A stretch of DNA of 64,000 nucleotides from Escherichia phage ZX4221 (OR498728.1); one strand, 5' to 3'. Shown: positions 3,591 to 64,000, counted from the stretch's first letter. Translations and numbers: made by a program. The notes: generated from the letters alone by a model not told the origin.

Positions 3591-8977
<5,387 letters not shown>

Positions 8978-19661: not shown

Positions 19662-19727
19662 CATCCTTCCATACCAAACCTCACCTGACCTCGCCTAACC
19701 CTACCTTACCCCACCATACAGCACCTT
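19662..19727. repeat. pentamer-periodic C/A-rich array (ACCNN-like)
   Basis: ACC recurring at about 5 nt spacing; G-poor on plus strand. Confidence 0.6.
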
Positions 19728-19764
19728 ATTAAAACACCCTGTTTAAAGACCTTTTAAAAAGGTA

Positions 19765-19790
19765 AGTCTCATTTTAATGTAGCTGAGACT
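19765..19790. repeat. conserved hairpin copy 1 (AGTCTCA-loop-TGAGACT)
   Basis: 7 bp stem, loop TTTTAATGTAGC, followed by AACTACCCATAC; recurs at 19896 and 21279. Confidence 0.6.
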
Positions 19791-19801
19791 AACTACCCAT
19801 A

Positions 19802-19856
19802 CCTCACCCTACCAGACCCTACCAGACCAGACCTTACCCTACCAGACCCTACCGAA
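19802..19856. repeat. tandem pentamer array (11 x ACCNN)
   Basis: ACCCT ACCAG ACCCT ACCAG ACCAG ACCTT ACCCT ACCAG ACCCT ACCGA read directly. Confidence 0.7.
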
Positions 19857-19895
19857 CATCACTTAAAAACCCTCTTAGAAGACTCTTAAGTGATG
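19857..19895. repeat. inverted repeat ATCACTTAA...TTAAGTGAT copy 1
   Basis: 9 bp arms, about 19 nt loop; second copy at 21386-21424. Confidence 0.55.
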
Positions 19896-19923
19896 TAATC
19901 GAATTTTAATGTAGCTCCGATTA
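19896..19923. repeat. conserved hairpin copy 2 with compensatory stem (TAATCGa / TCCGATTA)
   Basis: same loop ATTTTAATGTAGC and same AACTACCCATAC tail as copy 1 but a different base-paired stem. Confidence 0.55.
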
Positions 19924-19932
19924 ACTACCCAT

Positions 19933-19981
19933 ACCTCACCTCACCCAACCATACCATGCCTTGCCAGACCGCACCTTACCT
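19933..19981. repeat. C/A-rich pentamer-periodic array
   Basis: CTCACCTCACCCAACCATACCATGCCTTGCCAGACCGCACCTTACC. Confidence 0.5.
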
Positions 19982-20011
19982 CATTAAAAGACCCTCTTAA
20001 AAGACCTTTTA

Positions 20012-20040
20012 AAAAGGAGCCTCCGAAGAGGCTACCTAGT
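20012..20040 (-). terminator. terminator-like hairpin for minus-strand gene 20045..20485
   Basis: AGCCTC-CGAA-GAGGCT; on minus strand followed by CCTTTTT. Confidence 0.5.
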
Positions 20041-20044
20041 CAAC

Positions 20045-20485
20045 TTAGAAAGGTTTTCTACGTTGCTTGTTAATGTTAGCTTTCATAGCAGCTAAATGGT
20101 TTTGCTGTTCAATCAGTCGTGAACGTTCTTGATGACTAAGCGCCATAGTGTTCACATTCTCAATTGCTTGAGTGGCTTGCTTTAAAGCTCGACCAATCTT
20201 ACCAGACATTTTGCGTTTTGCAATAGTTGCTTGATGCTTAGGTTCAACCACACGATAACCAACACCCATTGAAGCAACCAGGTAAATCTTCTCTTCTTTA
20301 AGAAGCTTTTCAATAAACTTCTCAAGTCGGTTTAGACGTGTAAGTGCATAAGCCTTCATTTCATCTTCGTACTTAACAATGTCACCTTGATAAGTTGGCT
20401 TCACAATACCTAAGAAGGTGTCCATCTCGGAATGTGATACAGTGTCGCCGTAACTAAACTTTGCTGCTAATGCTTTTGTATTCAT
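20045..20485 (-). CDS. hypothetical protein (repeat-flanked cassette gene 2)
   Basis: 146 aa, basic C-terminus; no motif recognised. Confidence 0.4.
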   Translation of the reverse strand: MNTKALAAKFSYGDTVSHSEMDTFLGIVKPTYQGDIVKYEDEMKAYALTRLNRLEKFIEKLLKEEKIYLVASMGVGYRVVEPKHQATIAKRKMSGKIGRALKQATQAIENVNTMALSHQERSRLIEQQNHLAAMKANINKQRRKPF

Positions 20486-20487
20486 AA

Positions 20488-21093
<606 letters not shown>

Positions 21094-21176
21094 TTAGTTG
21101 ATTGTTAAGTTGTTTGTAAAGAACCCTCAACAGAAGACTCTTTAGAAACTTGGTAGATTTTTAACGTGGCTACTAC

Positions 21177-21238
21177 CATCCACCCACACCGTGCCACACC
21201 ACACCACACCATACCCAACTCCACCTAATCCTACCACA
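21177..21238. repeat. C/A-rich pentamer-periodic array
   Basis: CCATCCACCCACACCGTGCCACACCACACCACACCATACCC... Confidence 0.6.
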
Positions 21239-21278
21239 CCTTATTAAAAGACCCTCTTAAAGACCTTTTAAAAAGATA

Positions 21279-21304
21279 AGTCTCATTTTAATGTAGCTGA
21301 GACT
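21279..21304. repeat. conserved hairpin copy 3 (AGTCTCA-loop-TGAGACT)
   Basis: identical to copy 1, with the same upstream AAGACCTTTTAAAAAG and downstream AACTACCCATAC. Confidence 0.6.
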
Positions 21305-21316
21305 AACTACCCATAC

Positions 21317-21385
21317 CGAACCTCACCGCACCATACTACACCTGACACCACCTTACACCACCGCACCATACCTGACCGAGCTACA
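21317..21385. repeat. C/A-rich pentamer-periodic array
   Basis: CTCACCGCACCATACTACACCTGACACCACCTTACACCACCGCACCATACC. Confidence 0.55.
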
Positions 21386-21424
21386 CATCACTTAAAAACC
21401 CTTTTCAAAGACTCTTAAGTGATG
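21386..21424. repeat. inverted repeat ATCACTTAA...TTAAGTGATG copy 2
   Basis: matches 19857-19895. Confidence 0.55.
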
Positions 21425-53988: not shown

Positions 53989-54336
53989 ATGACATTTAAA
54001 GAGTTCTGTCAAGCTACTTTCATAATTGTTTTCTTAGTTGGGGCAGGTGTCTGGGGAGGATACTCTTACAGAGACTACCAAGTTGCTGAAGCTGAGTTAA
54101 GCAATGAGAAACTAATAAGTGTTGCTAAAGACGCTTATCAGGAAGGTTTAGCCACACTGAGCACCAATTACAAAAATGATTTGAAAGATGTGCTTGCTAA
54201 GAATAAGCATACAAAAGAGGTACTAACATATGAAAAAACTAAGCCAGAGTTTTATAATGTTTGTGTTACTGATAATTATGTCAGGGTGTTCAACGAACAA
54301 AGTGAACAGTACATTCAAAAACTCCCAAGTAAGTGA
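53989..54336 (+). CDS. i-spanin-like protein (putative)
   Basis: 115 aa with N-terminal transmembrane segment FIIVFLVGAGVWGGYSY; overlaps following lipoprotein gene in another frame. Confidence 0.4.
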   Translation: MTFKEFCQATFIIVFLVGAGVWGGYSYRDYQVAEAELSNEKLISVAKDAYQEGLATLSTNYKNDLKDVLAKNKHTKEVLTYEKTKPEFYNVCVTDNYVRVFNEQSEQYIQKLPSK

Positions 54337-54499
54337 GAGTGACAAGTACACTCAAGAGGAGTCAAGATTCACTGTCAAAGGTAATACTGGTAGTGATGTG
54401 GCAGCAGCCCTTGAGTTTTATCGTGATGGTTTTTACCAGTGCACAATCAAAGCTAATAACCTGATTGATATGATTTTATTAGGAAATAAACAGCAATGA
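54230..54499 (+). CDS. o-spanin-like outer-membrane lipoprotein (putative)
   Basis: 89 aa, lipobox-like IIMSGC after signal peptide; start embedded in previous gene. Confidence 0.45.
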   Translation: MKKLSQSFIMFVLLIIMSGCSTNKVNSTFKNSQVSESDKYTQEESRFTVKGNTGSDVAAALEFYRDGFYQCTIKANNLIDMILLGNKQQ

Positions 54500-54765
54500 C
54501 AGAGAATGAAGATACTTTCTATGTAGAAGGGTACTTACTACTACCACGACCAAAAGAAACTTATATGCGGGTTGATTTCTCACCAACCATTATGGATAAC
54601 GTGATGTGCCATATCTTTATGCAAGGTGTCACAGCACAGCTTAAGCATGTTGGTAAAGAGTGCAAAATAAAGGTTGACACTCATCCAGAAATCAAAGAGA
54701 ATCACTACACATGGTTCTTACCAGACTCTAAAGAAATCTTAGCAGTTCTTAAAACGAGGAAGTGA
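54496..54765 (+). CDS. hypothetical protein
   Basis: 89 aa, ATGA coupling. Confidence 0.3.
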   Translation: MTENEDTFYVEGYLLLPRPKETYMRVDFSPTIMDNVMCHIFMQGVTAQLKHVGKECKIKVDTHPEIKENHYTWFLPDSKEILAVLKTRK

Positions 54766-55094
54766 CTATGCAGATTAATGGAAGAGACTTTGTAGCTGTT
54801 TACTACGAGAAAGATAAAGAAGTTGGCGTAGCACAAGTATCTTATGGTAATGGTAAGTGGTTGTATGGAACAATCGCAGTAGTCGGAACAAGGAGTGATA
54901 CAAAAACTTTTAAAGATTGTGTTGACCTTCTTGAAGAATCCATCCACAATCATTGGTGTCTGATATGGATGACTGACAACGAAGTGATAGAACGCTTCAA
55001 AAAGATTGGTATCAACATTGATAGCATTGAGCATGTTGACTTGTATGAGCTAACTGAGAAGGTAAACTATGAAAGTAATACTAGCCAGAGATAA
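54762..55094 (+). CDS. hypothetical protein
   Basis: 110 aa, coupled. Confidence 0.3.
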   Translation: MTMQINGRDFVAVYYEKDKEVGVAQVSYGNGKWLYGTIAVVGTRSDTKTFKDCVDLLEESIHNHWCLIWMTDNEVIERFKKIGINIDSIEHVDLYELTEKVNYESNTSQR

Positions 55095-55302
55095 AAAGAC
55101 CCGCAAGATTGTACGTTCAGCAGTATTCATAGGGAGAGATGAAGTCGTCCCGTTTGCAGGGGAAGATGTGCTAACTTATAAGAAGGTTTTAAAACGTAAA
55201 TTCAGTGACCGTTTACGTGGCTTCATCTCTGAACCATTAGAAGATTTCAAAAGTCGCTGTGGCGAAGGCATCATCATTCAAGAGGCAATTATTCATGGCT
55301 GA
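55069..55302 (+). CDS. hypothetical protein
   Basis: 77 aa. Confidence 0.3.
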   Translation: MKVILARDKKTRKIVRSAVFIGRDEVVPFAGEDVLTYKKVLKRKFSDRLRGFISEPLEDFKSRCGEGIIIQEAIIHG

Positions 55303-55495
55303 TTTCTGCAAAGATTGTGCTATCGAAATGTTTGGACGTGATACAGGTGACTTAAAAGGTCTTATCACTGAAGATGACTTTAAAGCTGGTTATGCAATGC
55401 CAGTAATCTGTGAAGGTTGTGGGTGCATCTGGGTAGACCACGAAGGACAGCGTGTAAAACCTTCAGAAGATAAAGAATCTTGGGAGAGATGTTAA
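55295..55495 (+). CDS. small Cys-rich protein (hypothetical)
   Basis: CKDC ... CEGCGC; start placed at ATG 55295. Confidence 0.3.
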   Translation: MADFCKDCAIEMFGRDTGDLKGLITEDDFKAGYAMPVICEGCGCIWVDHEGQRVKPSEDKESWERC

Positions 55496-56281
55496 ATGGG
55501 TATTGTAAAAATCATCAAAGGTGATATCTTTGACGCATTTGATAAAGGTAAATTTGATATCATTGGTCATGGTTGCAACTGTATGAATTTCATGGGTGCA
55601 GGTATTGCAGCAACTATTTCTAAGCGTTATCCAAAAGTGTATGATACTGACACAGAAGTTTACCTGTTTGCAGGTGGCATTCGCCACAAACCTTGTGAAA
55701 ATTTACTCGGTAATTTCTCTGTAGCACGTTTAAAACAAGGTCGTATAGCTAACCTTTACACCCAACTCCATACTGGTAAAGATGCCCGATACAGTGCTTT
55801 AGAGTCATCTTTGAAGCAGCTTAACAGATACTGTGAAGTCAATCAGTTGAAGAAAGTCGGGTTACCTATGATTGGTGCAGGTATCGGTGGGCTAGACCCT
55901 CAAGCCGTCACAGTCATCATCAATCAGGTGATGAAGAGTGTAGATGTTTATCTGTATGTCTATGAAGGAGAGATGTACCACAAGTTACGCTCAGGTTGGA
56001 AGAACTACTGTGAACCAGAGTACTTTGCAGGTGTAGTTGTCTTCACAGATAACGCAGTTACCCTCTTCAGACGAAGAAAAGGTAAGATACATCAAAGTAA
56101 CCCTCCGGTTGAAAAGATGTCTCTAAGTAACGCTCTAGTTACCCACCTGTCGAAGAGCAACCACAGGATTGCTGTAACATTTGGTAGTGATGCAGAAACT
56201 TATATCTATGCAAGAACTGATGAGGATATCGAGACAGTTTTTTCTTCACCAGAAGTTACCTTCTTAGACGCAAAGAACTAA
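55496..56281 (+). CDS. macrodomain protein (ADP-ribose binding/hydrolase-like)
   Basis: IKGDIF, FDIIGHGCNCMNFMGAGIAATI and VGLPMIGAGIGGLD match macro-domain signature blocks as recalled. Confidence 0.55.
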   Translation: MGIVKIIKGDIFDAFDKGKFDIIGHGCNCMNFMGAGIAATISKRYPKVYDTDTEVYLFAGGIRHKPCENLLGNFSVARLKQGRIANLYTQLHTGKDARYSALESSLKQLNRYCEVNQLKKVGLPMIGAGIGGLDPQAVTVIINQVMKSVDVYLYVYEGEMYHKLRSGWKNYCEPEYFAGVVVFTDNAVTLFRRRKGKIHQSNPPVEKMSLSNALVTHLSKSNHRIAVTFGSDAETYIYARTDEDIETVFSSPEVTFLDAKN

Positions 56282-56337
56282 GAAACTCTGTAGAATATTC
56301 ACAATAGACTAAGCCTTTCTTATCTGGTAGATTTTTC

Positions 56338-56550
56338 AGGTAAGGAGGGCTTTTTCATTTCAGGATTGTGCAGGTAGAGTTCTGTAGAGAAGTCTGTAGA
56401 GAGAATTTTGAACTCCAAAGAGAAAATTCATTTTCAAACTGTGCAGGTAATCTCCAAAGAGCTTTTTCATTTTCAAAACGTGCAGAGAAAAATCAGGTCG
56501 GGCAAGAAAAATCATTTTAGAATTGTGCAGGTAGGTGGGTGCAGGTGGGG
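56338..56550. repeat. iteron-like degenerate direct repeats (TTCATTTTCA..TGTGCAGGTA)
   Basis: GTGCAG motif at about 56370, 56442, 56472, 56527 and 56539, each preceded by TTCATTTT-like sequence; CTGTAGAG repeated three times. Confidence 0.55.
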
Positions 56551-56719
56551 ATGTCGCCATTTCTCACAAGGCTACCACATCTGGAAATAAAAGTCAACAG
56601 AAAAATTTGTAGCGGATTGAAAAATAATTCTTGATTGTAGTTCTGTTTTGTGGTAGTCGCGCGCACCCGTTTCATTACAATTTTTGCAAAAAAAAAAAAA
56701 AATATTTTTAAAATTCCTA

Positions 56720-56798
56720 TTGACTCTTTGAGTATGGTTATCTAATATTTGCATCAGACGGGCAAGCAAGCCCACTTCCTAAACTGGAGAATCTAAAA
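56720..56798 (+). promoter_or_regulatory. strong sigma70-like promoter (TTGACT-17-TAATAT) with A15 tract upstream and leader hairpin
   Basis: TTGACT 56720-56725, TAATAT 56743-56748, hairpin GGGCAAGCAAGCCC, conserved RBS region CCTAAACTGGAGAATCTAAAAATG. Confidence 0.55.
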
Positions 56799-57005
56799 AT
56801 GCTTTACAGTCGTGAATTGATGGTTACAACTAACGTTAACACAAAGGTAAAACGTTTTTACATGCAAATTTGTGACGTATGGTCTAGAATATCAGAGGCT
56901 GACTATTGCAACTATGTAGAAACGGCTATTAATTCTAATTGCTACCTTACAAGAAACACTAAGAAATTTACAAGGCAGACAGCGATTTACTACTACGACA
57001 AATAA
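56799..57005 (+). CDS. small early protein (hypothetical)
   Basis: 68 aa; conserved leader/RBS cassette. Confidence 0.4.
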   Translation: MLYSRELMVTTNVNTKVKRFYMQICDVWSRISEADYCNYVETAINSNCYLTRNTKKFTRQTAIYYYDK

Positions 57006-57093
57006 AGTACTTTACAGGGGGCTTAAAAGTTGATATCTTAAGCCCCAGATAAAGAGCTTTACTAAATTAACCCTTAAACTAGGAGATTCAAAA
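57003..57093 (+). repeat. intergenic cassette type A (hairpin GGGGCTTAA..TTAAGCCCC + conserved RBS)
   Basis: AAGTACTTTACAGGGGGCTT...AGCCCCAGATAAAGAGCTTTAC...TAAACTAGGAGATTCAAAAATG. Confidence 0.6.
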
Positions 57094-57474
57094 ATGGCTT
57101 ATCGTGCACCGAAATTCATCAACAAAGACAACTTCCGCAACGCACTGGAGAAGTCACTTGATGAAAAATTTAACGGCAAATTGATTGTTGTCCACGCATT
57201 CAATTTTAAGTATGATATTAACGGGAATAAAATCAACCATTACACGGCAACCATGTTAGATGGCACGCTATCAAGTGAAAAAGCCGTACTGAATGCACTT
57301 GCAGGACGTGGTAAAAACCTGATAAGATGCGATAAGAGACGTTATCAGGGTGGCGCATATGGTTATGATGATGCTGTTTATCATCTTGAAAATATGGGCT
57401 ATTCAGTGGAAAAAGCTGGAGTGTCTCAAATAATCGGCAGTGACGGCTATGTGACAATTTTCAAAATTAACTGA
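57094..57474 (+). CDS. small early protein (hypothetical)
   Basis: 126 aa. Confidence 0.45.
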   Translation: MAYRAPKFINKDNFRNALEKSLDEKFNGKLIVVHAFNFKYDINGNKINHYTATMLDGTLSSEKAVLNALAGRGKNLIRCDKRRYQGGAYGYDDAVYHLENMGYSVEKAGVSQIIGSDGYVTIFKIN

Positions 57475-57562
57475 TAAAGTACTTTACAAGGGGCTTATAG
57501 TTCGATAAAGTAAGCCCCAGATAAAGAGCTTTACCACTCAATCCTAAATTGGAGATTCTAAA
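57475..57562 (+). repeat. intergenic cassette type A
   Basis: CTGATAAAGTACTTTACAAGGGGCTTATAGTTCGATAAAGTAAGCCCCAGATAAAGAGCTTTACCACT...GGAGATTCTAAAATG. Confidence 0.65.
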
Positions 57563-57820
57563 ATGGCTATTATCAAAAACGTTGTAATTGCTGCAAAAAC
57601 TCGTGATGACGCTCGCGTTATGGCTAAAAAGTTATGCGGAAAAGTTGTTGACAACGGGAAACAATCTGCTGTAAGGTGGAGCGTGAAGGCTGATAAACAA
57701 CTAACCTTAAAACGCAGTTCAAACAATCTTTTTAAAGGTGTAAAATCACTCGGTAAAGTGAACGTGTTTACCAAAAAAGGCTATAAAATGCACTTATCAT
57801 TAACTGGCAATTTAATCTGA
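57563..57820 (+). CDS. small early protein (hypothetical, basic)
   Basis: 85 aa. Confidence 0.45.
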   Translation: MAIIKNVVIAAKTRDDARVMAKKLCGKVVDNGKQSAVRWSVKADKQLTLKRSSNNLFKGVKSLGKVNVFTKKGYKMHLSLTGNLI

Positions 57821-57908
57821 TAAAGTACTTTACAGGGGGCTTAAAAGCTGATATCTTAAGCCCCAGATAAAGAGCTTTACCACTAAATCCTAAACTGGAG
57901 ATTCAAAA
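57821..57908 (+). repeat. intergenic cassette type A
   Basis: same cassette with variant hairpin loop. Confidence 0.65.
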
Positions 57909-58421
57909 ATGAAAACTGTAGACGCTACCTTTGAAGTTGTAAAAGAAAAATTCACCATTATTTATGAAGCTGTCAATTGCTTTGAAGCAAGCCATAATCT
58001 CGATAATTGGGAGTTTACAAACGACCATCAAGGCGGTGTGACTGTTAAAAATCCTAACTGTCAGCATAATGATTTTAAATATGCAATCCCTTTGCATTAC
58101 AGCCTTAAACAGCTTTCAAGTGACTATGCAAAACAAGGCCGCGATAATCCATCGAAAGAGGCTTACACGAGCTTACAGAAAGAACTAGAAAGAGATTTAG
58201 AGGCTTCAGAGTATAACCTTGCCGCGAAAGTTGTGGATGCAAACGGTAGCACGGTTTTAGAAAGTTTTTATCTTGGTTATGCTTTCGATTGGTGCTATCG
58301 TGACGGTGATGATTTAGAGGATAGACTAAAAGAAGAGGTGAACAACGCAGACGCAGAATCTGAAGTATTAGAACGTTTGGAATCGTTGAAAGACTCAGTG
58401 ATGAATATCTTTAAGAACTAA
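57909..58421 (+). CDS. small early protein (hypothetical)
   Basis: 170 aa. Confidence 0.45.
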   Translation: MKTVDATFEVVKEKFTIIYEAVNCFEASHNLDNWEFTNDHQGGVTVKNPNCQHNDFKYAIPLHYSLKQLSSDYAKQGRDNPSKEAYTSLQKELERDLEASEYNLAAKVVDANGSTVLESFYLGYAFDWCYRDGDDLEDRLKEEVNNADAESEVLERLESLKDSVMNIFKN

Positions 58422-58511
58422 ATAGATTTCTTTACACGGGGTTATCAAGCTGGTAGGATAGCCCCAGATAAAGAGATTTATCACTAAATCCTTAAACTAG
58501 GAGATTCAAAA
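58422..58511 (+). repeat. intergenic cassette type A (divergent copy)
   Basis: TTTCTTTACACGGGGTTATC...GATAGCCCCAGATAAAGAGATTTATCACTAAATCC...GGAGATTCAAAAATG. Confidence 0.55.
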
Positions 58512-58808
58512 ATGAAACTATCAAATAAAGTCCGTGAAAATCTAAGCAAGTTGCTTAATAAAATTGATTTCATTGAAACATCAAGGAATAGTCATGATGT
58601 TATGGAATGGTTACACGGAAAAATCAAAGGTCGTCGTGTAGTGATTTGCTTATGGAATAGTTGCAGGGAATATAAAAAACCTGTATTACAAGTCAATATC
58701 TATGATGATACTTTTAAAAGCCCTGTAAAGTCTAAAAGCGATTTATTAGAATCTTATGAGATAACTGTAAATGGCAAGGTATCACGTAAAGAGGAAGCAC
58801 CATGTTAA
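58512..58808 (+). CDS. small early protein (hypothetical)
   Basis: 98 aa. Confidence 0.45.
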   Translation: MKLSNKVRENLSKLLNKIDFIETSRNSHDVMEWLHGKIKGRRVVICLWNSCREYKKPVLQVNIYDDTFKSPVKSKSDLLESYEITVNGKVSRKEEAPC

Positions 58809-59134
58809 TGATGGGTATCACTGCAATCATTGCCATTATAGCACTTTACAAGGCTTATAGCGCATATAATTTGGCAAGTAAGGCAATCACGCAGCAGGTC
58901 AATAATAACCTTGTAATGAGCTTTCTGGAGCGTTTAAGCGATGAACAAATAAAACGGTTAGAAATGAGCTTCAGATTTCAATCAAAAACTTATCAAATCA
59001 GCGACATTTTCAAAGATGATTTTCAGCTTGTCGATGATTATAACTCTCTGATAAATGCTTTAAATATCAGTGATTTAAAAGATTATCATGCTGTAATAGT
59101 TCAAGAATTGAGCAAACGAAAAAATTCCTCTTGA
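58802..59134 (+). CDS. small membrane-anchored protein (hypothetical)
   Basis: 110 aa, N-terminal hydrophobic segment; overlaps previous gene by 7 nt with no cassette between. Confidence 0.4.
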   Translation: MLMMGITAIIAIIALYKAYSAYNLASKAITQQVNNNLVMSFLERLSDEQIKRLEMSFRFQSKTYQISDIFKDDFQLVDDYNSLINALNISDLKDYHAVIVQELSKRKNSS

Positions 59135-59140
59135 TTTTGG

Positions 59141-59224
59141 TTTTTAAAACAAGTAAATTACTAATCAACGGGGAGGTAATGACCTTCCCCACTAAGTAAA
59201 GTCCTTAAACTAGGAGATTCAAGA
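59141..59224 (+). promoter_or_regulatory. intergenic cassette type B: promoter TTGATT-17-TAAATT + leader hairpin + conserved RBS
   Basis: -35 59141-59146, -10 59164-59169, hairpin GGGGAGGTAATGACCTTCCCC. Confidence 0.55.
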
Positions 59225-59383
59225 ATGTTTTGTGCAGGTGATAAAGTTGTCTGGAATGATATAGATGACGGTTTATGTACGAAAGTTGTTGTTATCTTAG
59301 AAATTGATTATATCACTGGTGTTGCAACTGTAGCAGATAATGATATAATCTTTGATGTCTTAATTAGTGAACTGTCAAAATAA
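59225..59383 (+). CDS. small early protein (52 aa, not in ORF track)
   Basis: MFCAGDKVVWNDIDDG...; preceded by type B cassette. Confidence 0.4.
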   Translation: MFCAGDKVVWNDIDDGLCTKVVVILEIDYITGVATVADNDIIFDVLISELSK

Positions 59384-59407
59384 AACCTTAAACTAGGAGC
59401 TTTTAAA

Positions 59408-59680
59408 ATGTACACTACTAACAACGGTCGCACTTTAAACATAACCCTACGCCACTATGTGAACGGTGTAATGCACTTCGAGGATTTACAAGCTGAACAA
59501 CATATATTGGATTGGCAAGTAGCAGGACTCCAAAAAACTGCTACCGGATACGGGAAAAAGATTCCAACTAGTTGGAAAGTTCACTATGAAGGACGTTTGC
59601 GCAGAATTTATCAAGATGTTTACAGCAATAGCGCAGCAAGTTACATCATGGTAAAAGGTAAAAAGCTGCATTTAGTGTAA
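59408..59680 (+). CDS. small early protein (hypothetical)
   Basis: 90 aa; partial cassette AAACCTTAAACTAGGAGCTTTTAAAATG upstream. Confidence 0.4.
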   Translation: MYTTNNGRTLNITLRHYVNGVMHFEDLQAEQHILDWQVAGLQKTATGYGKKIPTSWKVHYEGRLRRIYQDVYSNSAASYIMVKGKKLHLV

Positions 59681-59765
59681 AGTACTTTACAAGGGGCTTA
59701 TAGTTCGATAAAGTAAGCCCCAGATAAAGAGCTTTACCACTCAATCCTAAATTGGAGATTCTAAA
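59681..59765 (+). repeat. intergenic cassette type A
   Basis: near-identical to 57475-57562. Confidence 0.65.
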
Positions 59766-60170
59766 ATGGCTATTAATAACCGTGAGTTATCAATCTTAAA
59801 AGCACGTTTGACCGTTAACCGGATTAATGTTATTACATCATCAGCACCGGATGAAACATTGCACAACATTATCGGGAAGATTCAAAGTGTTATCTTAGAC
59901 GTTGAAAACGTAAAAAACTCATTGTCTGACGTTGCAGCAGGTATCACGCTAGACGGTGCACAATATGAAATGGCTGACATGTTAGGCAAATCAAAGGTAA
60001 TGAATAAAGAGCTTGATTTAAAAATGTTTCGTTTTGCTGTTAAAGTGTGGCTATCTGTTGAGTATGACGCAAATTTTGCAATCGCTGACTTTTTCGCAAC
60101 ATGGTTGCAACGTAATTTAACAAATCATGATTTTCGTGATGTCTGTGATGCAATTTATGCAGAACTCTAA
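59766..60170 (+). CDS. small early protein (hypothetical)
   Basis: 134 aa. Confidence 0.45.
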   Translation: MAINNRELSILKARLTVNRINVITSSAPDETLHNIIGKIQSVILDVENVKNSLSDVAAGITLDGAQYEMADMLGKSKVMNKELDLKMFRFAVKVWLSVEYDANFAIADFFATWLQRNLTNHDFRDVCDAIYAEL

Positions 60171-60180
60171 AAAAATTTTG

Positions 60181-60274
60181 TTGACACTGGTTTTTAAAAC
60201 AAGTAAATTACCAATCAACGGGGAGGGAATGAACTTCCCCACTAAATAAAGTCCTTAAACTAGGAGATTCAAAA
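60181..60274 (+). promoter_or_regulatory. intergenic cassette type B: promoter TTGACA-17-TAAATT + leader hairpin + RBS
   Basis: -35 60181-60186, -10 60204-60209, hairpin GGGGAGGGAATGAACTTCCCC. Confidence 0.6.
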
Positions 60275-60472
60275 ATGGCTATTATTAATGGTTTAAACAT
60301 TGAAACTACTCATATCAAAGATATCAAAGTTGGCGATATAGTCCTTTTTCACGGCGTAGAAAAAACCGTCACTGAAAAGGATATCAAGGAGGATTCATTC
60401 ATGGGTCGGACGCTTTTCGGTGATTCTTATTGCTTAGGTTACCTTGCAGTTTTAAAAGTTGTAAAAAATTAA
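60275..60472 (+). CDS. small early protein (hypothetical)
   Basis: 65 aa. Confidence 0.4.
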   Translation: MAIINGLNIETTHIKDIKVGDIVLFHGVEKTVTEKDIKEDSFMGRTLFGDSYCLGYLAVLKVVKN

Positions 60473-60564
60473 CTGATAAAGTACTTTACAAGGGGCTTAT
60501 AGTTCGATAAAGTAAGCCCCAGATAAAGAGCTTTACCACTAAATCCTAAACTGGAGATTCTAAA
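60473..60564 (+). repeat. intergenic cassette type A
   Basis: near-identical to 57475-57562. Confidence 0.65.
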
Positions 60565-61107
60565 ATGAAATGCTTTCACGGTACTACTCAAGAAAACTTT
60601 ACCAACCTGCTTAATAACGGTGATAAACCATCAGGCGCATGGAATTGTTCGGATATGGACGGCAATTTTTACGTGTATCCAGAAAATAAAATCTATGGCG
60701 ACGATGAGGAAGAAATAATCTCTGAAGGTATCCAGCAGGCTCTAGGTAATGCAGCTATCACCGCAGCTTTCCAGATGAAAACCCAAAATATTGTTATCTT
60801 AGAACTTGATATCCCAGAGGATGACCTAAATGATGATTATTCTTGTGATAATATGTCGAGCGTGGCAAGTTTTACAGAGTATTTTGATATAAGCTGGATT
60901 AAAAAGGTTTACATCACTGAATTTAATGCTATGTTTTCACCTTTTTGTCTTCCTTCACTGGATAACCCAAATTTAAACTATCTTGATGAGTCTCTGGAAC
61001 TTCTCGCTAAAAGTGTTCAACAATCAGACAGTATTCAGGTTTTTTGTGACATCATGGATACACTAACAGGAAACATTGCAGAAGAGGATTTAAAGAGCTT
61101 TTTCTAA
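60565..61107 (+). CDS. small early protein (hypothetical, acidic)
   Basis: 180 aa. Confidence 0.45.
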   Translation: MKCFHGTTQENFTNLLNNGDKPSGAWNCSDMDGNFYVYPENKIYGDDEEEIISEGIQQALGNAAITAAFQMKTQNIVILELDIPEDDLNDDYSCDNMSSVASFTEYFDISWIKKVYITEFNAMFSPFCLPSLDNPNLNYLDESLELLAKSVQQSDSIQVFCDIMDTLTGNIAEEDLKSFF

Positions 61108-61173
61108 AAACCTATGCAATCACCTTATAAACACTATTCAGCCCCTACAAGGGGCTTCTAGGAGGCTTTAATC

Positions 61174-61407
61174 ATGCTTACAACCGTTTACCTCATCCTT
61201 TCTATTTGTAATGGTCATTCGTGCGATTTTAAAGGGCTTGAGGAGTTTACAGGAAGTAAAGAAAATGCTATTCAAGTTTGCCAGATAGCAAGGCAAGACT
61301 ATCCCGCCAGTGATGATATTCAATGCTACTTTAAGACAGAAGATGACGATGGAATCTATTTCGACAGTGTTGATGGTCAATATGAAATTATCATTGAAAA
61401 AGACTAG
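61174..61407 (+). CDS. small early protein (hypothetical)
   Basis: 77 aa; hairpin GCCCCTACAAGGGGC and AGGAGG RBS upstream. Confidence 0.4.
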   Translation: MLTTVYLILSICNGHSCDFKGLEEFTGSKENAIQVCQIARQDYPASDDIQCYFKTEDDDGIYFDSVDGQYEIIIEKD

Positions 61408-61498
61408 ACAAGCCTGATAAAAGTCTGTAAATTACACATCAACGGGGAGGGAATGACCTTCCCCACTAAATAAAGTCCTTAAACTAGGAGATTCAAAA
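61405..61498 (+). promoter_or_regulatory. intergenic cassette type B: promoter TAGACA-17-TAAATT + leader hairpin + RBS
   Basis: -35 61405-61410, -10 61428-61433; -35 overlaps the stop of the upstream gene. Confidence 0.55.
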
Positions 61499-61840
61499 AT
61501 GGCTTATGTAACCGTAATTACCGATAAAGAGGATTCATCTTGGTCAACTCAAGTAAGTGACAAGATGTCACCTATGCAGTGCCTAAAATACTTTGAGCAG
61601 TGGAATAAAGGAGAGGATATCAGCCCCTTTCAAGTGATGCAGATTATCCATACAGACAACGAAGGGATTAAAACGGTTTTAAATAGTGAGCACTACGCAA
61701 CCCGATTTGAAACGAGATGTAAAACGATGAAGTTATTACGTGAATCCGGTTATGCCCATATCGCCGCGTTAATCTGGGATGACCTGCTAAAAAGTCAGCG
61801 TATCAGCTATGTAAAACCTGAAAAAATATTCATCAGTTAA
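61499..61840 (+). CDS. small early protein (hypothetical)
   Basis: 113 aa. Confidence 0.45.
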   Translation: MAYVTVITDKEDSSWSTQVSDKMSPMQCLKYFEQWNKGEDISPFQVMQIIHTDNEGIKTVLNSEHYATRFETRCKTMKLLRESGYAHIAALIWDDLLKSQRISYVKPEKIFIS

Positions 61841-61969
61841 TCAACAACTTACAAAAAACTTTTAAAAAAGTATTGACAATACCCCTTGACATTGGTAACT
61901 TTGTTCGAGGGGGTTTATCTAAAAGGGATTAACTTAAAAGATTCTTTATAGATAAACTTAAAAAATTAC

Positions 61970-62060
61970 TTGCAATCAGATATCAAAACAAGTAAATTAC
62001 TAATCAACGGGAGGGAATGACCTTCCCCACTAAGTAAAGTCCTAAACTGGAGAATCTAAA
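61970..62060 (+). promoter_or_regulatory. intergenic cassette type B: promoter TTGCAA-17-TAAATT + leader hairpin + RBS
   Basis: -35 61970-61975, -10 61993-61998; extra TTGACA boxes and a CCCC/GGGG hairpin at 61873-61900. Confidence 0.55.
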
Positions 62061-62591
62061 ATGAATAAGTTCAAAGCTATCAACTTCATTCGTTCAAATG
62101 CTGTAATGTCTAAACCTGTTAAAGATACCTATGAATTTCGCTGCAATGGTGTGCACTTTGCAACCATCACCAAATCAGAAAACGGGGCTTATTACGTTCA
62201 TCGTCGTAATGCTGCAACCGTTGTAGTCTCACATTTTATGCAAGCTGTAGCGGAATTATTACCGCTATTCTTAGAGATTTATCTAGATGATTGCAAAAAC
62301 GTTCACAGCCACGTTAAAAACCTTTTAAACGGTTATAAAATGGCTTATGAGCGTTCTATCAAGTCCTTAAACAAGTTCTATAAAGCCCCTGTAAATACCG
62401 TTTCAATGGCCTACGGCGTAGGTGGCTGGACTGTTAACCTTTCTCTAGTGGAAGAAATCGAGCTTTACGACCATCGACCTAGCGGTTACTCTAAGACACT
62501 TGGTGAAGGTTTAACGTTCAATATCAAGAACTTAGAAAAAACTTTAAAAGATATTGAAAAAGATATTGACGAGACAATCAAAAGTCTGTAA
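62061..62591 (+). CDS. small early protein (hypothetical)
   Basis: 176 aa. Confidence 0.45.
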   Translation: MNKFKAINFIRSNAVMSKPVKDTYEFRCNGVHFATITKSENGAYYVHRRNAATVVVSHFMQAVAELLPLFLEIYLDDCKNVHSHVKNLLNGYKMAYERSIKSLNKFYKAPVNTVSMAYGVGGWTVNLSLVEEIELYDHRPSGYSKTLGEGLTFNIKNLEKTLKDIEKDIDETIKSL

Positions 62592-62657
62592 ATTGTCAAT
62601 CAACGGGGAGGGAATGACCTTCCCCACTAAGTAAAGTCCTAAACTGGAGATTCAAAA
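62566..62657 (+). promoter_or_regulatory. intergenic cassette type B: promoter TTGACG-17-TAAATT + leader hairpin + RBS
   Basis: -35 62566-62571 (inside 3' end of upstream gene), -10 62589-62594, hairpin 62605-62625. Confidence 0.6.
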
Positions 62658-62906
62658 ATGGCAACTATCCGCGCAATTGTAAATTCTTATGGCTGCTACA
62701 CTCTGGACGTTAAATTTGATATAGGTGGGACTGATGAGTGTTTCGAACTGGTGAAGACAGTCATTAAACAAGTTATCCCAGACTATAACCCTACTGATGA
62801 CTTCTGGAAAGATGCAGTAAAAGAGGCGCTGAACGATGAATATCATTACCATTATTGGGGTGATTTGATTGTCTCCCTGTACTACAATAAACAAGGTTGC
62901 AACTAA
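62658..62906 (+). CDS. small early protein (hypothetical)
   Basis: 82 aa. Confidence 0.45.
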   Translation: MATIRAIVNSYGCYTLDVKFDIGGTDECFELVKTVIKQVIPDYNPTDDFWKDAVKEALNDEYHYHYWGDLIVSLYYNKQGCN

Positions 62907-62915
62907 TCGACGCAA

Positions 62916-62995
62916 CGGGGCTAAATAGCCCCAGATACCTTTACAGCCCCTTTATATAGATTCGATAGAGTCTATCTCATAGGGGCTTTTTTACG
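62916..62995 (+). terminator. compound hairpin/terminator at end of small-gene cluster
   Basis: GGGGCTAAATAGCCCC, then CCCCTTTATATAG...CTCATAGGGGC followed by TTTTTT. Confidence 0.45.
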
Positions 62996-63399
62996 TCCTA
63001 TCAAATCCCTTATACAACCCTTTCCCTTTCCTTTCCAGAATCTTACTAGACCTTAAAAAGCAATAACTCTATAGCTTACTCTATAGCCTTTTATTAAATC
63101 AACTTAAATATAAGCCCATAACCCGAAAGGGAAGGGCAACCATTAATTGGTATTGTTACCAATCCCTTAAACGCTCTATAAAGCCCTATAACGGCCTTAT
63201 TAACCTAACTTAAGGGATTGCATTACCTCACTCTAAAAAGCCCTTTATAGAGCTTTCTAGAGCCTTAAAAGAATCTTATAAGGGTGTGAGCTTTATCATC
63301 TCGTTAGAATTCTTGTGAATAACTAAACAACCCCTTGATAGTCACTAAAAAGTGTGTTATAGGGGCTTTAAAGTTACTTTGAAGTAGCTTAAAAGTTAC

Positions 63400-63990
63400 G
63401 TAAATGCTAGCCCCCTTAACATTTTCTTAACAATTTCTTAACAACCCCTACATAGTTATGCTTTTAAGGCACTTGTTAGCAACTTGTTAGCCCCTTGTTA
63501 AATATCTGTTAAGACCACGTAAAAGCCTTGTAAGAGTCTTTAGCATAGCCTTTAAAGCCTCTGTAAAGCCCTATAAAGAGGTGTTTGTATAGTTGGGGTG
63601 TAATTACTAGGAAGAGACTTAAAAGAGCTTACAAAGAGCTATAGAGAGCTTTTAAGAGGGCTATTTAGAGAATCACTAAGAGGGAAAGGGAACGATAAGA
63701 AAAGAGATAGTGACCATGTTAATAGCTTGTTAAAAAGATTAAACACTTGTTAGGAACTTGTTAATTATCTTAACAAAATAACTCTTAAAAATTAACTTGT
63801 TAGCTCTTGTTAGTCATCTGTTAAGACTCTGTAAAGTCTATGTATCAACTGTTAAGAACTTGTTACACCCTTGTTAGTTCTGTTAAGAATCTGTTAAGAC
63901 CTCTGAAGAGATGTTAAGAGGATGTAGTAGCTGTTAAGAGATTGTTAAGGATATTTTAAAATTCTGCAAAGTACTTGTAAGGGAGCTGTT
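63400..63990. repeat. dense array of degenerate heptamer repeats (CTTGTTAG / CTGTTAAG / TTGTAAG)
   Basis: about 20 copies in about 590 bp; no ORF of 60 aa or more on either strand from 62916 to 64000. Confidence 0.6.
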
Positions 63991-64000
63991 AAGGGCTACC

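Follow-up and report, generated by a model that had tools for sequence, protein, structure and literature searches.

In T4-like phages, PeSL (promoter-early stem-loop) cassettes are known to mediate insertions and deletions as well as mini-circle formation in hyperplastic regions (Arbiol et al. 2010, PMC2839356; Comeau et al. 2014, PMC4122927). Felix O1, which a 2015 paper grouped with the PAK_P1-like phages (PMC4309531), carries 39-bp and 57-bp direct repeats that its genome paper listed as repeats alone (Whichard et al. 2010, PMC3185647). They are missing from the promoter list of that paper, which mentions neither the hairpin nor the ribosome-binding site (RBS) module nor the association with gains and losses of genes that we describe below; the initiation and timing of transcription are stated as not known. 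Our literature search found no paper that interprets these repeats, and other Felixounavirus genome papers that we checked do not mention them. Here we analyse a stretch of 64,000 nucleotides (nt) from Escherichia phage ZX4221 (OR498728.1), which as a whole is called the window. Near its right end, a repeated unit of promoter, hairpin and RBS (type B) precedes one small gene after another. With a probability of roughly 70%, we take these units to be portable expression cassettes for accessory early genes of Felix O1-like phages, in which promoter, leader hairpin and recombination homology act together.

The first-pass annotation had described five such units. Sequence reading, a repeat finder (families D2, D5 and D10) and a five-way alignment bore this out and place them on the plus strand, except that the first unit starts at 59131 and not at 59141, i.e. 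10 nt lower. Direct reading and the alignment also reproduced the -35 boxes that had been listed (TTGATT, TTGACA, TAGACA, TTGCAA and TTGACG), the spacer of exactly 17 nt in 5/5 units and the -10 box TAAATT in 5/5 units (at 59154, 60204, 61428, 61993 and 62589). The stem-loop said to lie close behind the -10 indeed starts 10 nt downstream of it in the five units, and the reported overlap with upstream coding ends is real, with stop codons inside the -35 (TGA in B1, TAG in B3) or inside the -10 (TAA in B5). Each unit follows the same order: an A-tract, the -35, the 17-nt spacer, the -10, 10 nt, a GC-rich hairpin, an A-rich spacer, GGAG and the ATG. The units, together with a sixth, diverged copy (B0) and the array of RBS modules, are located as follows (gene products in amino acids, aa).

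56720..56801, plus strand: B0, diverged; -35 TTGACT at 56720-56725, 17-nt spacer, -10 TAATAT at 56743-56748; leader hairpin GGGCAAGCAAGCCC at 56760-56773, then the RBS module and ATG at 56799
59131..59227, plus strand: B1; -35 TTGATT at 59131-59136, containing the TGA stop of the upstream gene; -10 TAAATT at 59154-59159; hairpin 59170-59190; GGAG 59213-59216; ATG at 59225 of a 52-aa gene
60181..60277, plus strand: B2; -35 TTGACA at 60181-60186; -10 TAAATT at 60204-60209; hairpin 60220-60240; ATG at 60275 of a 65-aa gene
61405..61501, plus strand: B3; -35 TAGACA at 61405-61410, containing the upstream TAG stop; -10 TAAATT at 61428-61433; hairpin 61444-61464; ATG at 61499 of a 113-aa gene
61970..62063, plus strand: B4; -35 TTGCAA at 61970-61975; -10 TAAATT at 61993-61998; hairpin 62009-62028 with the 5' arm one G shorter; ATG at 62061 of a 176-aa gene
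62566..62660, plus strand: B5; -35 TTGACG at 62566-62571, within the upstream coding end; -10 TAAATT at 62589-62594, containing the TAA stop; hairpin 62605-62625; ATG at 62658 of an 82-aa gene
56778..62660, plus strand: array of RBS modules, CCT(T)AAAYT(A)GGAG-N8-ATG, at 13 genes

The type-B hairpin has the sequence GGGGAGGG-AATGA-CCTTCCCC, from which copies 1 and 2 deviate by one substitution and copy 4 by the loss of 1 nt. Behind the hairpin stands the RBS module CCT(T)AAACT(A)GGAGATTCAAAAATG. With up to 3 mismatches allowed, the 30-nt hairpin motif occurs 4 times, against 0.00 expected from 100 shuffles; the fifth copy, which differs by the 1-nt deletion, falls outside this count. The stretch of about 70 nt from the -10 to the ATG is nearly identical among the copies, GGAG is followed by 8 nt and then ATG in all of them, and the leaders of the window units fold at -14 to -19 kcal/mol. 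Two features had been missed before. B0 heads the array as the first promoter past a terminator at 56311-56352 and is preceded by a run of 15 A; the cassettes of relatives that are orthologous to it (subtype TTGACT...TAATAT) have the canonical hairpin. In addition, the RBS module on its own stands 5' of 13 genes, all of them within 56778-62660.

According to our proposal, the host sigma-70 RNA polymerase would recognise the UP-like A-tract, the -35, the 17-nt spacer and TAAATT. The transcript would start at the A 8 nt past the -10, about 3 nt ahead of the GC-rich hairpin, and would then cross the A-rich spacer to GGAG, a strong ribosome-binding site located 8 nt upstream of the ATG; in this way, every small gene would have a transcript to itself. 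The 5'-proximal hairpin would most likely guard this transcript from 5'-end-dependent decay via RppH and RNase E, a role that we transfer from general E. coli knowledge, where shielding of the 5' end from these enzymes is established. Since the copies are nearly identical over the ~70 nt from -10 to ATG, this stretch could double as homology for recombination, so that single genes with one cassette each would be inserted, deleted or swapped at the units and the copies within a genome homogenised, as has been described for PeSL cassettes.

The window belongs to a Felixounavirus, i.e. a Felix O1-like myovirus of the subfamily Ounavirinae. With 59000-63000 as query, megablast returned 254 phage records, of about 90% identity; almost without exception, they are Felix O1-like myoviruses from E. 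coli, Salmonella, Shigella and Citrobacter. The array lies at the end of a rightward block matching Felix O1 genes 15-23, and a non-coding stretch of more than 1 kb follows it directly. None of its 15 open reading frames (ORFs) has a Pfam match. A single cassette used as blastn query hit 1430 places in 245 records, typically 4-8 per genome; with the exception of one record labelled as a Staphylococcus phage, these matches are confined to Felixounavirus, Mooglevirus and Suspvirus. A gapped pattern scan of IMG/VR gave matches mostly at chance level, apart from contigs of about 85-90 kb. For the comparisons below, a profile built from the five window copies was run with nhmmer over 13 fetched genomes and IMG/VR contigs, which recovered 142 cassette instances (118 unique).

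The promoter part was compared by sorting 141 copies according to their upstream 35 nt, which gave 19 subtypes. In 17/19 subtypes, the sequence closest to TTGACA is separated from the -10 by exactly 17 nt, a count that includes one Mooglevirus subtype for which the script was one base out of register and which reads by hand as TTGCAA-17-TAATAT. Of the two exceptions, one is a Tribble copy whose spacer is extended to 19 by a TA expansion, and the other is an SP116 cassette with the -35 deleted. The -10 occurs as TAAATT, TAAAGT, TAATAT, TAGTAT, TATAGT and TAAGTT, that is, T1, A2 and T6 are constant while positions 3-5 vary. The TTG of the -35 is likewise kept among subtypes whose spacers and flanks cannot be aligned with each other, and an A-tract is conserved 5-10 nt upstream of the -35. 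In promoters that overlap the C-terminal codons of the gene before them, TTGAC and TAA are the same from genus to genus, although about half of the spacer has changed. Conserved boxes and spacing amid divergent spacers are the pattern expected under selection, and the earlier suggestion of selection for promoter function is well supported by this comparison: the type-B unit is a putative promoter for the host sigma-70 polymerase. No RNA polymerase is encoded by Felix O1 (PMC3185647). In semi-quantitative reverse transcription PCR (RT-PCR), its ORFs 21 and 22 peak at 5 min and its ORFs 19 and 23 at 25 min; none of these four genes, all of which lie behind type-B units, is late (PMC3185647). The published data are thus consistent with an early timing of type-B genes.

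A gene-order table of the 13 genomes showed that the small genes come and go singly, bounded by cassettes; families 33, 20, 29, 21, 41, 35, 16, 14, 12, 5 and 6 are present or absent as single units between them. We read three exchange junctions, all of which lie inside the conserved segment. At the first, an 87-aa gene of Ro111lw, XTG1 and skuden is missing from the window and B5 is chimeric: its promoter is that of the cassette of the 87-aa gene, and its hairpin type and start codon are those of the cassette after it. The crossover lies within ATCAACGGGG, and both parent cassettes can be seen in Ro111lw. At the second, Ro111lw lacks the 65-aa gene and a unit of the sister type A (see below), and the crossover falls between GGAGATTC and AAAATG. 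The third is the insertion of the 52-aa gene behind B1, with RBS modules at both bounds. SP116 (5733-5870) has two tandem type-B cassettes 90 nt apart with no gene between them; the spacer of the second cassette directly follows the ATG of the first, an arrangement that resembles the trace of a deletion.

The genes in the array differ widely in their distribution. The 52-aa gene (59225-59383) was found in just 25 phage records, 22 of them at 99% identity or more, and the 176-aa neighbour gene has mostly 80-95% identity in relatives. For the 65-aa gene (60275-60472), homologues are present in 418 records, some of them outside the subfamily, for example in phages of Klebsiella, Enterobacter, Cronobacter and Ruegeria. 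Between the start site and the RBS, paralogues within a genome differ on average by 7.42 edits, orthologues between genomes by 7.76 and paralogues across genomes by 9.69 (0/1000 permutations as extreme for within against across); for Felixounavirus alone, the values for paralogues are 6.89 within and 7.31 across genomes (14/1000 permutations). Because paralogues within a genome are as alike as orthologues and closer than paralogues from different genomes, the cassette copies of one genome evolve in concert. Judging from these sequences, single ORFan genes are gained and lost exactly at the type-B units, which thus appear to be the recombination joints of the accessory-gene array.

The stem of the leader hairpin starts 10 nt past the -10 in essentially all canonical copies and 11 nt past it in B0 and its closest relatives. 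Counted from the predicted start (the A 8 nt past the -10), 3 unpaired nt (AAC) precede the stem in B1-B5 and 4 in B0, compared with the distance of at most about 2-4 unpaired nt from the mRNA 5' end that characterises a 5' stabiliser. Among 45 hairpin sequence variants (for example GGGGGATGACCCCC, GGGGAGGCGATAACCTCCCC, GGGGAGGGAGACTTCCCC and GGGGCAAGCAAGCCCC), almost every one has a folding energy between -9 and -15 kcal/mol; mononucleotide shuffles give -3.3 kcal/mol. In a test in which 3' arms were swapped between variants, native hairpins reached -11.26 kcal/mol and swapped ones -10.07 +/- 0.22 kcal/mol, with 0/2000 shuffles as good; for the diverged variants alone, the values were -10.39 and -8.73. 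A MAFFT alignment of the variants proved too indel-rich for direct use; in the alignment to a covariance model, 92% of the cells in the stem columns pair. This model gave 62 matches across 15 loci, every one on the plus strand, and none elsewhere in the window or in Erwinia phage phiEa21-4. An Rfam search of 54000-64000 returned no relevant family, the sole match being mir-22 at a chance-level E of 0.44. Upstream of the orthologue of the 176-aa gene, phiEa21-4 carries TTTACA-18-TATACT, then 9 nt and the unrelated hairpin GGTTCA-GCAC-TGAACC, which is the best independent support for a leader hairpin. A role as mRNA-stabilising 5' leader is plausible, and the position of the hairpin fits the predicted start.

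Three other functions of the leader were considered and set aside. The loop and 3' flank can be read as a leader peptide, ATG ACC TTC CCC ACT AA(A/G) TAA, whose ATG lies 2 nt past GGAGG within the hairpin loop; this ATG is missing in many variants (those with GATAA, GAGA or GAAA loops). For an RNase III site, the stem of 7-8 bp is too short. Finally, the minimum-energy fold contains a mini-hairpin, UCCU/AGGA, that masks the Shine-Dalgarno sequence; its T and A are lost together in the short form, and phiEa21-4 retains CCUU/AAGG. We did not count this as covariation, as it comprises just 3-4 bp and the two forms are tightly linked alleles.

Several observations weigh against the cassette proposal or parts of it. 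Covariation between stem columns in the covariance-model alignment is not significant (33/500 shuffles reach the score), and the stem may be conserved as sequence and not as structure; the two cannot be cleanly separated because a G-run is set against a C-run. Less variation is seen in the flanks ATCAAC and ACTAA than inside the stem, a difference that a pure stabiliser role does not explain and that leaves room for a protein-binding role. With regard to timing, 2/4 of the Felix O1 genes behind type-B units peak at 25 min and not at 5 min. In the literature that we searched, neither transcription starts nor RNA half-lives are reported for any Felix O1-like phage. Finally, common descent of the module could partly explain the constant spacing between copies.

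The type-B units alternate with sister units of type A, which have a promoter of the form TTTACA-17-TAAAGT/TATCTT followed by the same RBS module.

57011..60567, plus strand: span of the type-A units (repeat families D1 and D6)
57011-57096, 57483-57565, 57829-57911, 59686-59768 and 60485-60567, plus strand: type-A copies
58431-58514, plus strand: type-A variant
across the spacer and the -10 of type-A units, plus strand: hairpin GGGGCTTA..TAAGCCCC

The 5' arm of the type-A hairpin is upstream of the predicted start, so this hairpin could form solely in read-through RNA. Phage phiEa21-4 keeps the type-A architecture with altered arms, GGTGTTTATAC..GTATAAGCACC.

We also noticed other repeats in and around the array. 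The 130-nt spacer before B4 (61841-61969) contains two overlapping TTGACA boxes and an inverted repeat, CCCCT...AGGGGG, at 61873-61915; in some relatives, a tiny ORF is annotated here. Between a macro-domain gene and the first cassette lies a non-coding stretch of 400 bp, in which 56346-56549 holds three to four copies of a ~34-nt repeat ending in TTCATTTTCAAAcTGTGCAG as well as GTGCAGGT(A/G)G repeats. The last part of the window, 62907-64000, is free of ORFs for more than 1 kb and dense in short repeats in both orientations (CTTGTTA, CTGTTAAG, AAAGCCC and AAAGAGC); in relatives, this is the region of the physical genome end or terminal repeat. Far from the array, at 19674-21424, an 89-nt repeat occurs in five copies, each an ACC-periodic tract (CCAAACCTCACCTGACC...) followed by TTAAAAnACCCT..AAAGAC.

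It is conceivable that the hairpin is a terminator or attenuator that insulates the genes from read-through, a function proposed for PeSL stem-loops, or stops antisense transcription of the minus strand. In the XTG1 record (KT184316), type-B hairpins are in fact labelled 'Rho-independent terminator' on the minus strand (4631-4651, 5496-5516, 7050-7070 and 8211-8231), and the hairpin lies 10-40 nt past the stop codon of the upstream gene. In reporter assays, termination was shown for PeSL stem-loops whose arms are GGGG...CCCC (PMC2839356), and the type-A sister hairpin, which straddles the -10, could be made in read-through RNA alone. However, a U-tract is absent on both strands, with no T-run within 2 nt past the stem (the plus strand continues with ACUAAAUAAAG and the minus strand with GUUGAUUAGUAAUUUAC). 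A terminator scan reported four terminator-like sites with no type-B hairpin among them, although it detected the genuine terminator at 56311-56352. A terminator 10 nt behind its own promoter would silence the gene it precedes, and the cassette region has no minus-strand genes. An intrinsic terminator on either strand is thus rejected for want of a U-tract and of a scan flag, despite the XTG1 label, and we regard the broader idea of termination or attenuation as unlikely.

A somewhat smaller chance is given to the idea that the hairpin and its invariant flanks (ATCAAC-GGGG...CCCC-ACTAA), with arms that mimic the Shine-Dalgarno sequence and its complement, are a specific recognition element. 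It might serve a phage-encoded factor that silences all accessory early messages at once, or a targeted recombination function by which cassettes of one gene each are excised and inserted. If the recombination version were true, the array would serve a virulent phage for gene capture, much as integrons do, and would not be a by-product of general homologous recombination.

Smaller again is the chance that the hairpin with its flanks (ATCAAC-stem-ACTAA) is the recognition site of a phage or host protein, be it a translational repressor or an endoribonuclease by which early messages are shut off jointly, or a factor that loads on nascent RNA like lambda N at boxB. The motif GGAG, common to all array genes, is the one cleaved by T4 RegB, and the arms resemble the Shine-Dalgarno GGAGG and its complement, CCUCC or CCUUCC. 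Copies from Mooglevirus and Suspvirus have 4-nt loops, GAGA or GAAA. Over three genera, the flanks and the outer GGGG/CCCC pairs are better conserved than the stem interior or the loop, but homogenising recombination can also account for conservation of the sequence. No candidate binding protein emerged; the neighbouring ORFs are all without known domains, there is no matching Rfam family, and the phiEa21-4 hairpin at the equivalent site is unrelated.

It seems very improbable that the repeats lack a regulatory role of their own and are selfish DNA, linkers copied passively or scars of recombination, spread by the phage recombination system and with merely incidental promoter-like boxes: the concerted evolution of the copies, the empty tandem cassette of SP116 and the high background of a simple promoter scan in AT-rich DNA (45 sites against 29 expected) would suit it, but every copy is oriented as the genes are and leads up to an ATG that has GGAG 8 nt before it, the covariance model matches 62/62 times on the plus strand, and the non-homologous upstream halves keep TTG, the 17-nt spacing and T1-A2-T6 even within coding sequence.

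Felix O1-like phages are widely used in typing, biocontrol and therapy directed at Salmonella and E. coli. Within 6 kb, the cassettes of the array provide candidate early promoters, about a dozen in number, as well as a concrete map of the sites at which accessory genes are exchanged. If the cassette proposal is confirmed, the plug-and-play design of T4-like phages, consisting of promoter, hairpin and RBS, would have arisen independently and with its parts reordered in another large group of virulent phages. Confirmation would also supply natural insertion points and compact expression parts for the engineering of Felix O1-like phages.

How do the units compare with described systems? In E. 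coli mRNAs, 5'-terminal stem-loops such as that of the ompA 5' untranslated region reportedly stabilise the message, as is said to have been described by Emory, Bouvet and Belasco in 1992. Type-B leaders resemble the ompA type in their stable hairpin a few nt from the 5' end (here a predicted one), their unstructured A-rich leader and their strong RBS. With PAK_P1-like Pseudomonas phages, the likeness lies in conserved repeated promoters, TTGACA-N17 followed by a -10, of which there are 5-6 per genome in a variable early region (PMC4309531). In contrast to our units, no leader hairpin or shared RBS module is described for them; their sequences are unrelated and their host is another one. The Felix O1 39-bp repeat TTGACACTGGTTTTTAGATAGATTAAATTACACATCAAC, located between genes 18/19 and 20/21, is the type-B promoter, and the 57-bp repeat of that phage is type A. 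The repeats as such had thus already been listed for Felix O1; new here are their interpretation as cassettes and the gene exchange at the units.

The closest parallel is offered by PeSLs. PeSLs and type-B units are both repeated and intergenic; both have an AT-rich tract, an early promoter of the sigma-70 type whose spacer measures 17 nt, and a stem-loop of the form GGGG...CCCC, and at their 3' end both carry a Shine-Dalgarno sequence with the start codon. Both also sit in a hyperplastic region of small ORFans, where the endpoints of indels and replacements fall in the units. The PeSL stem-loop, however, is a terminator just upstream of the promoter, whereas that of type B lies 10 nt downstream of the -10 and has no U-tract. 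With their stem across the spacer and the -10, type-A units are nearer to the PeSL order than type B. There is no sequence similarity between the two systems, which belong to different lineages, the Ounavirinae and the T4-like phages. We therefore class type B not as a PeSL but as a variant that works similarly in an unrelated phage lineage.

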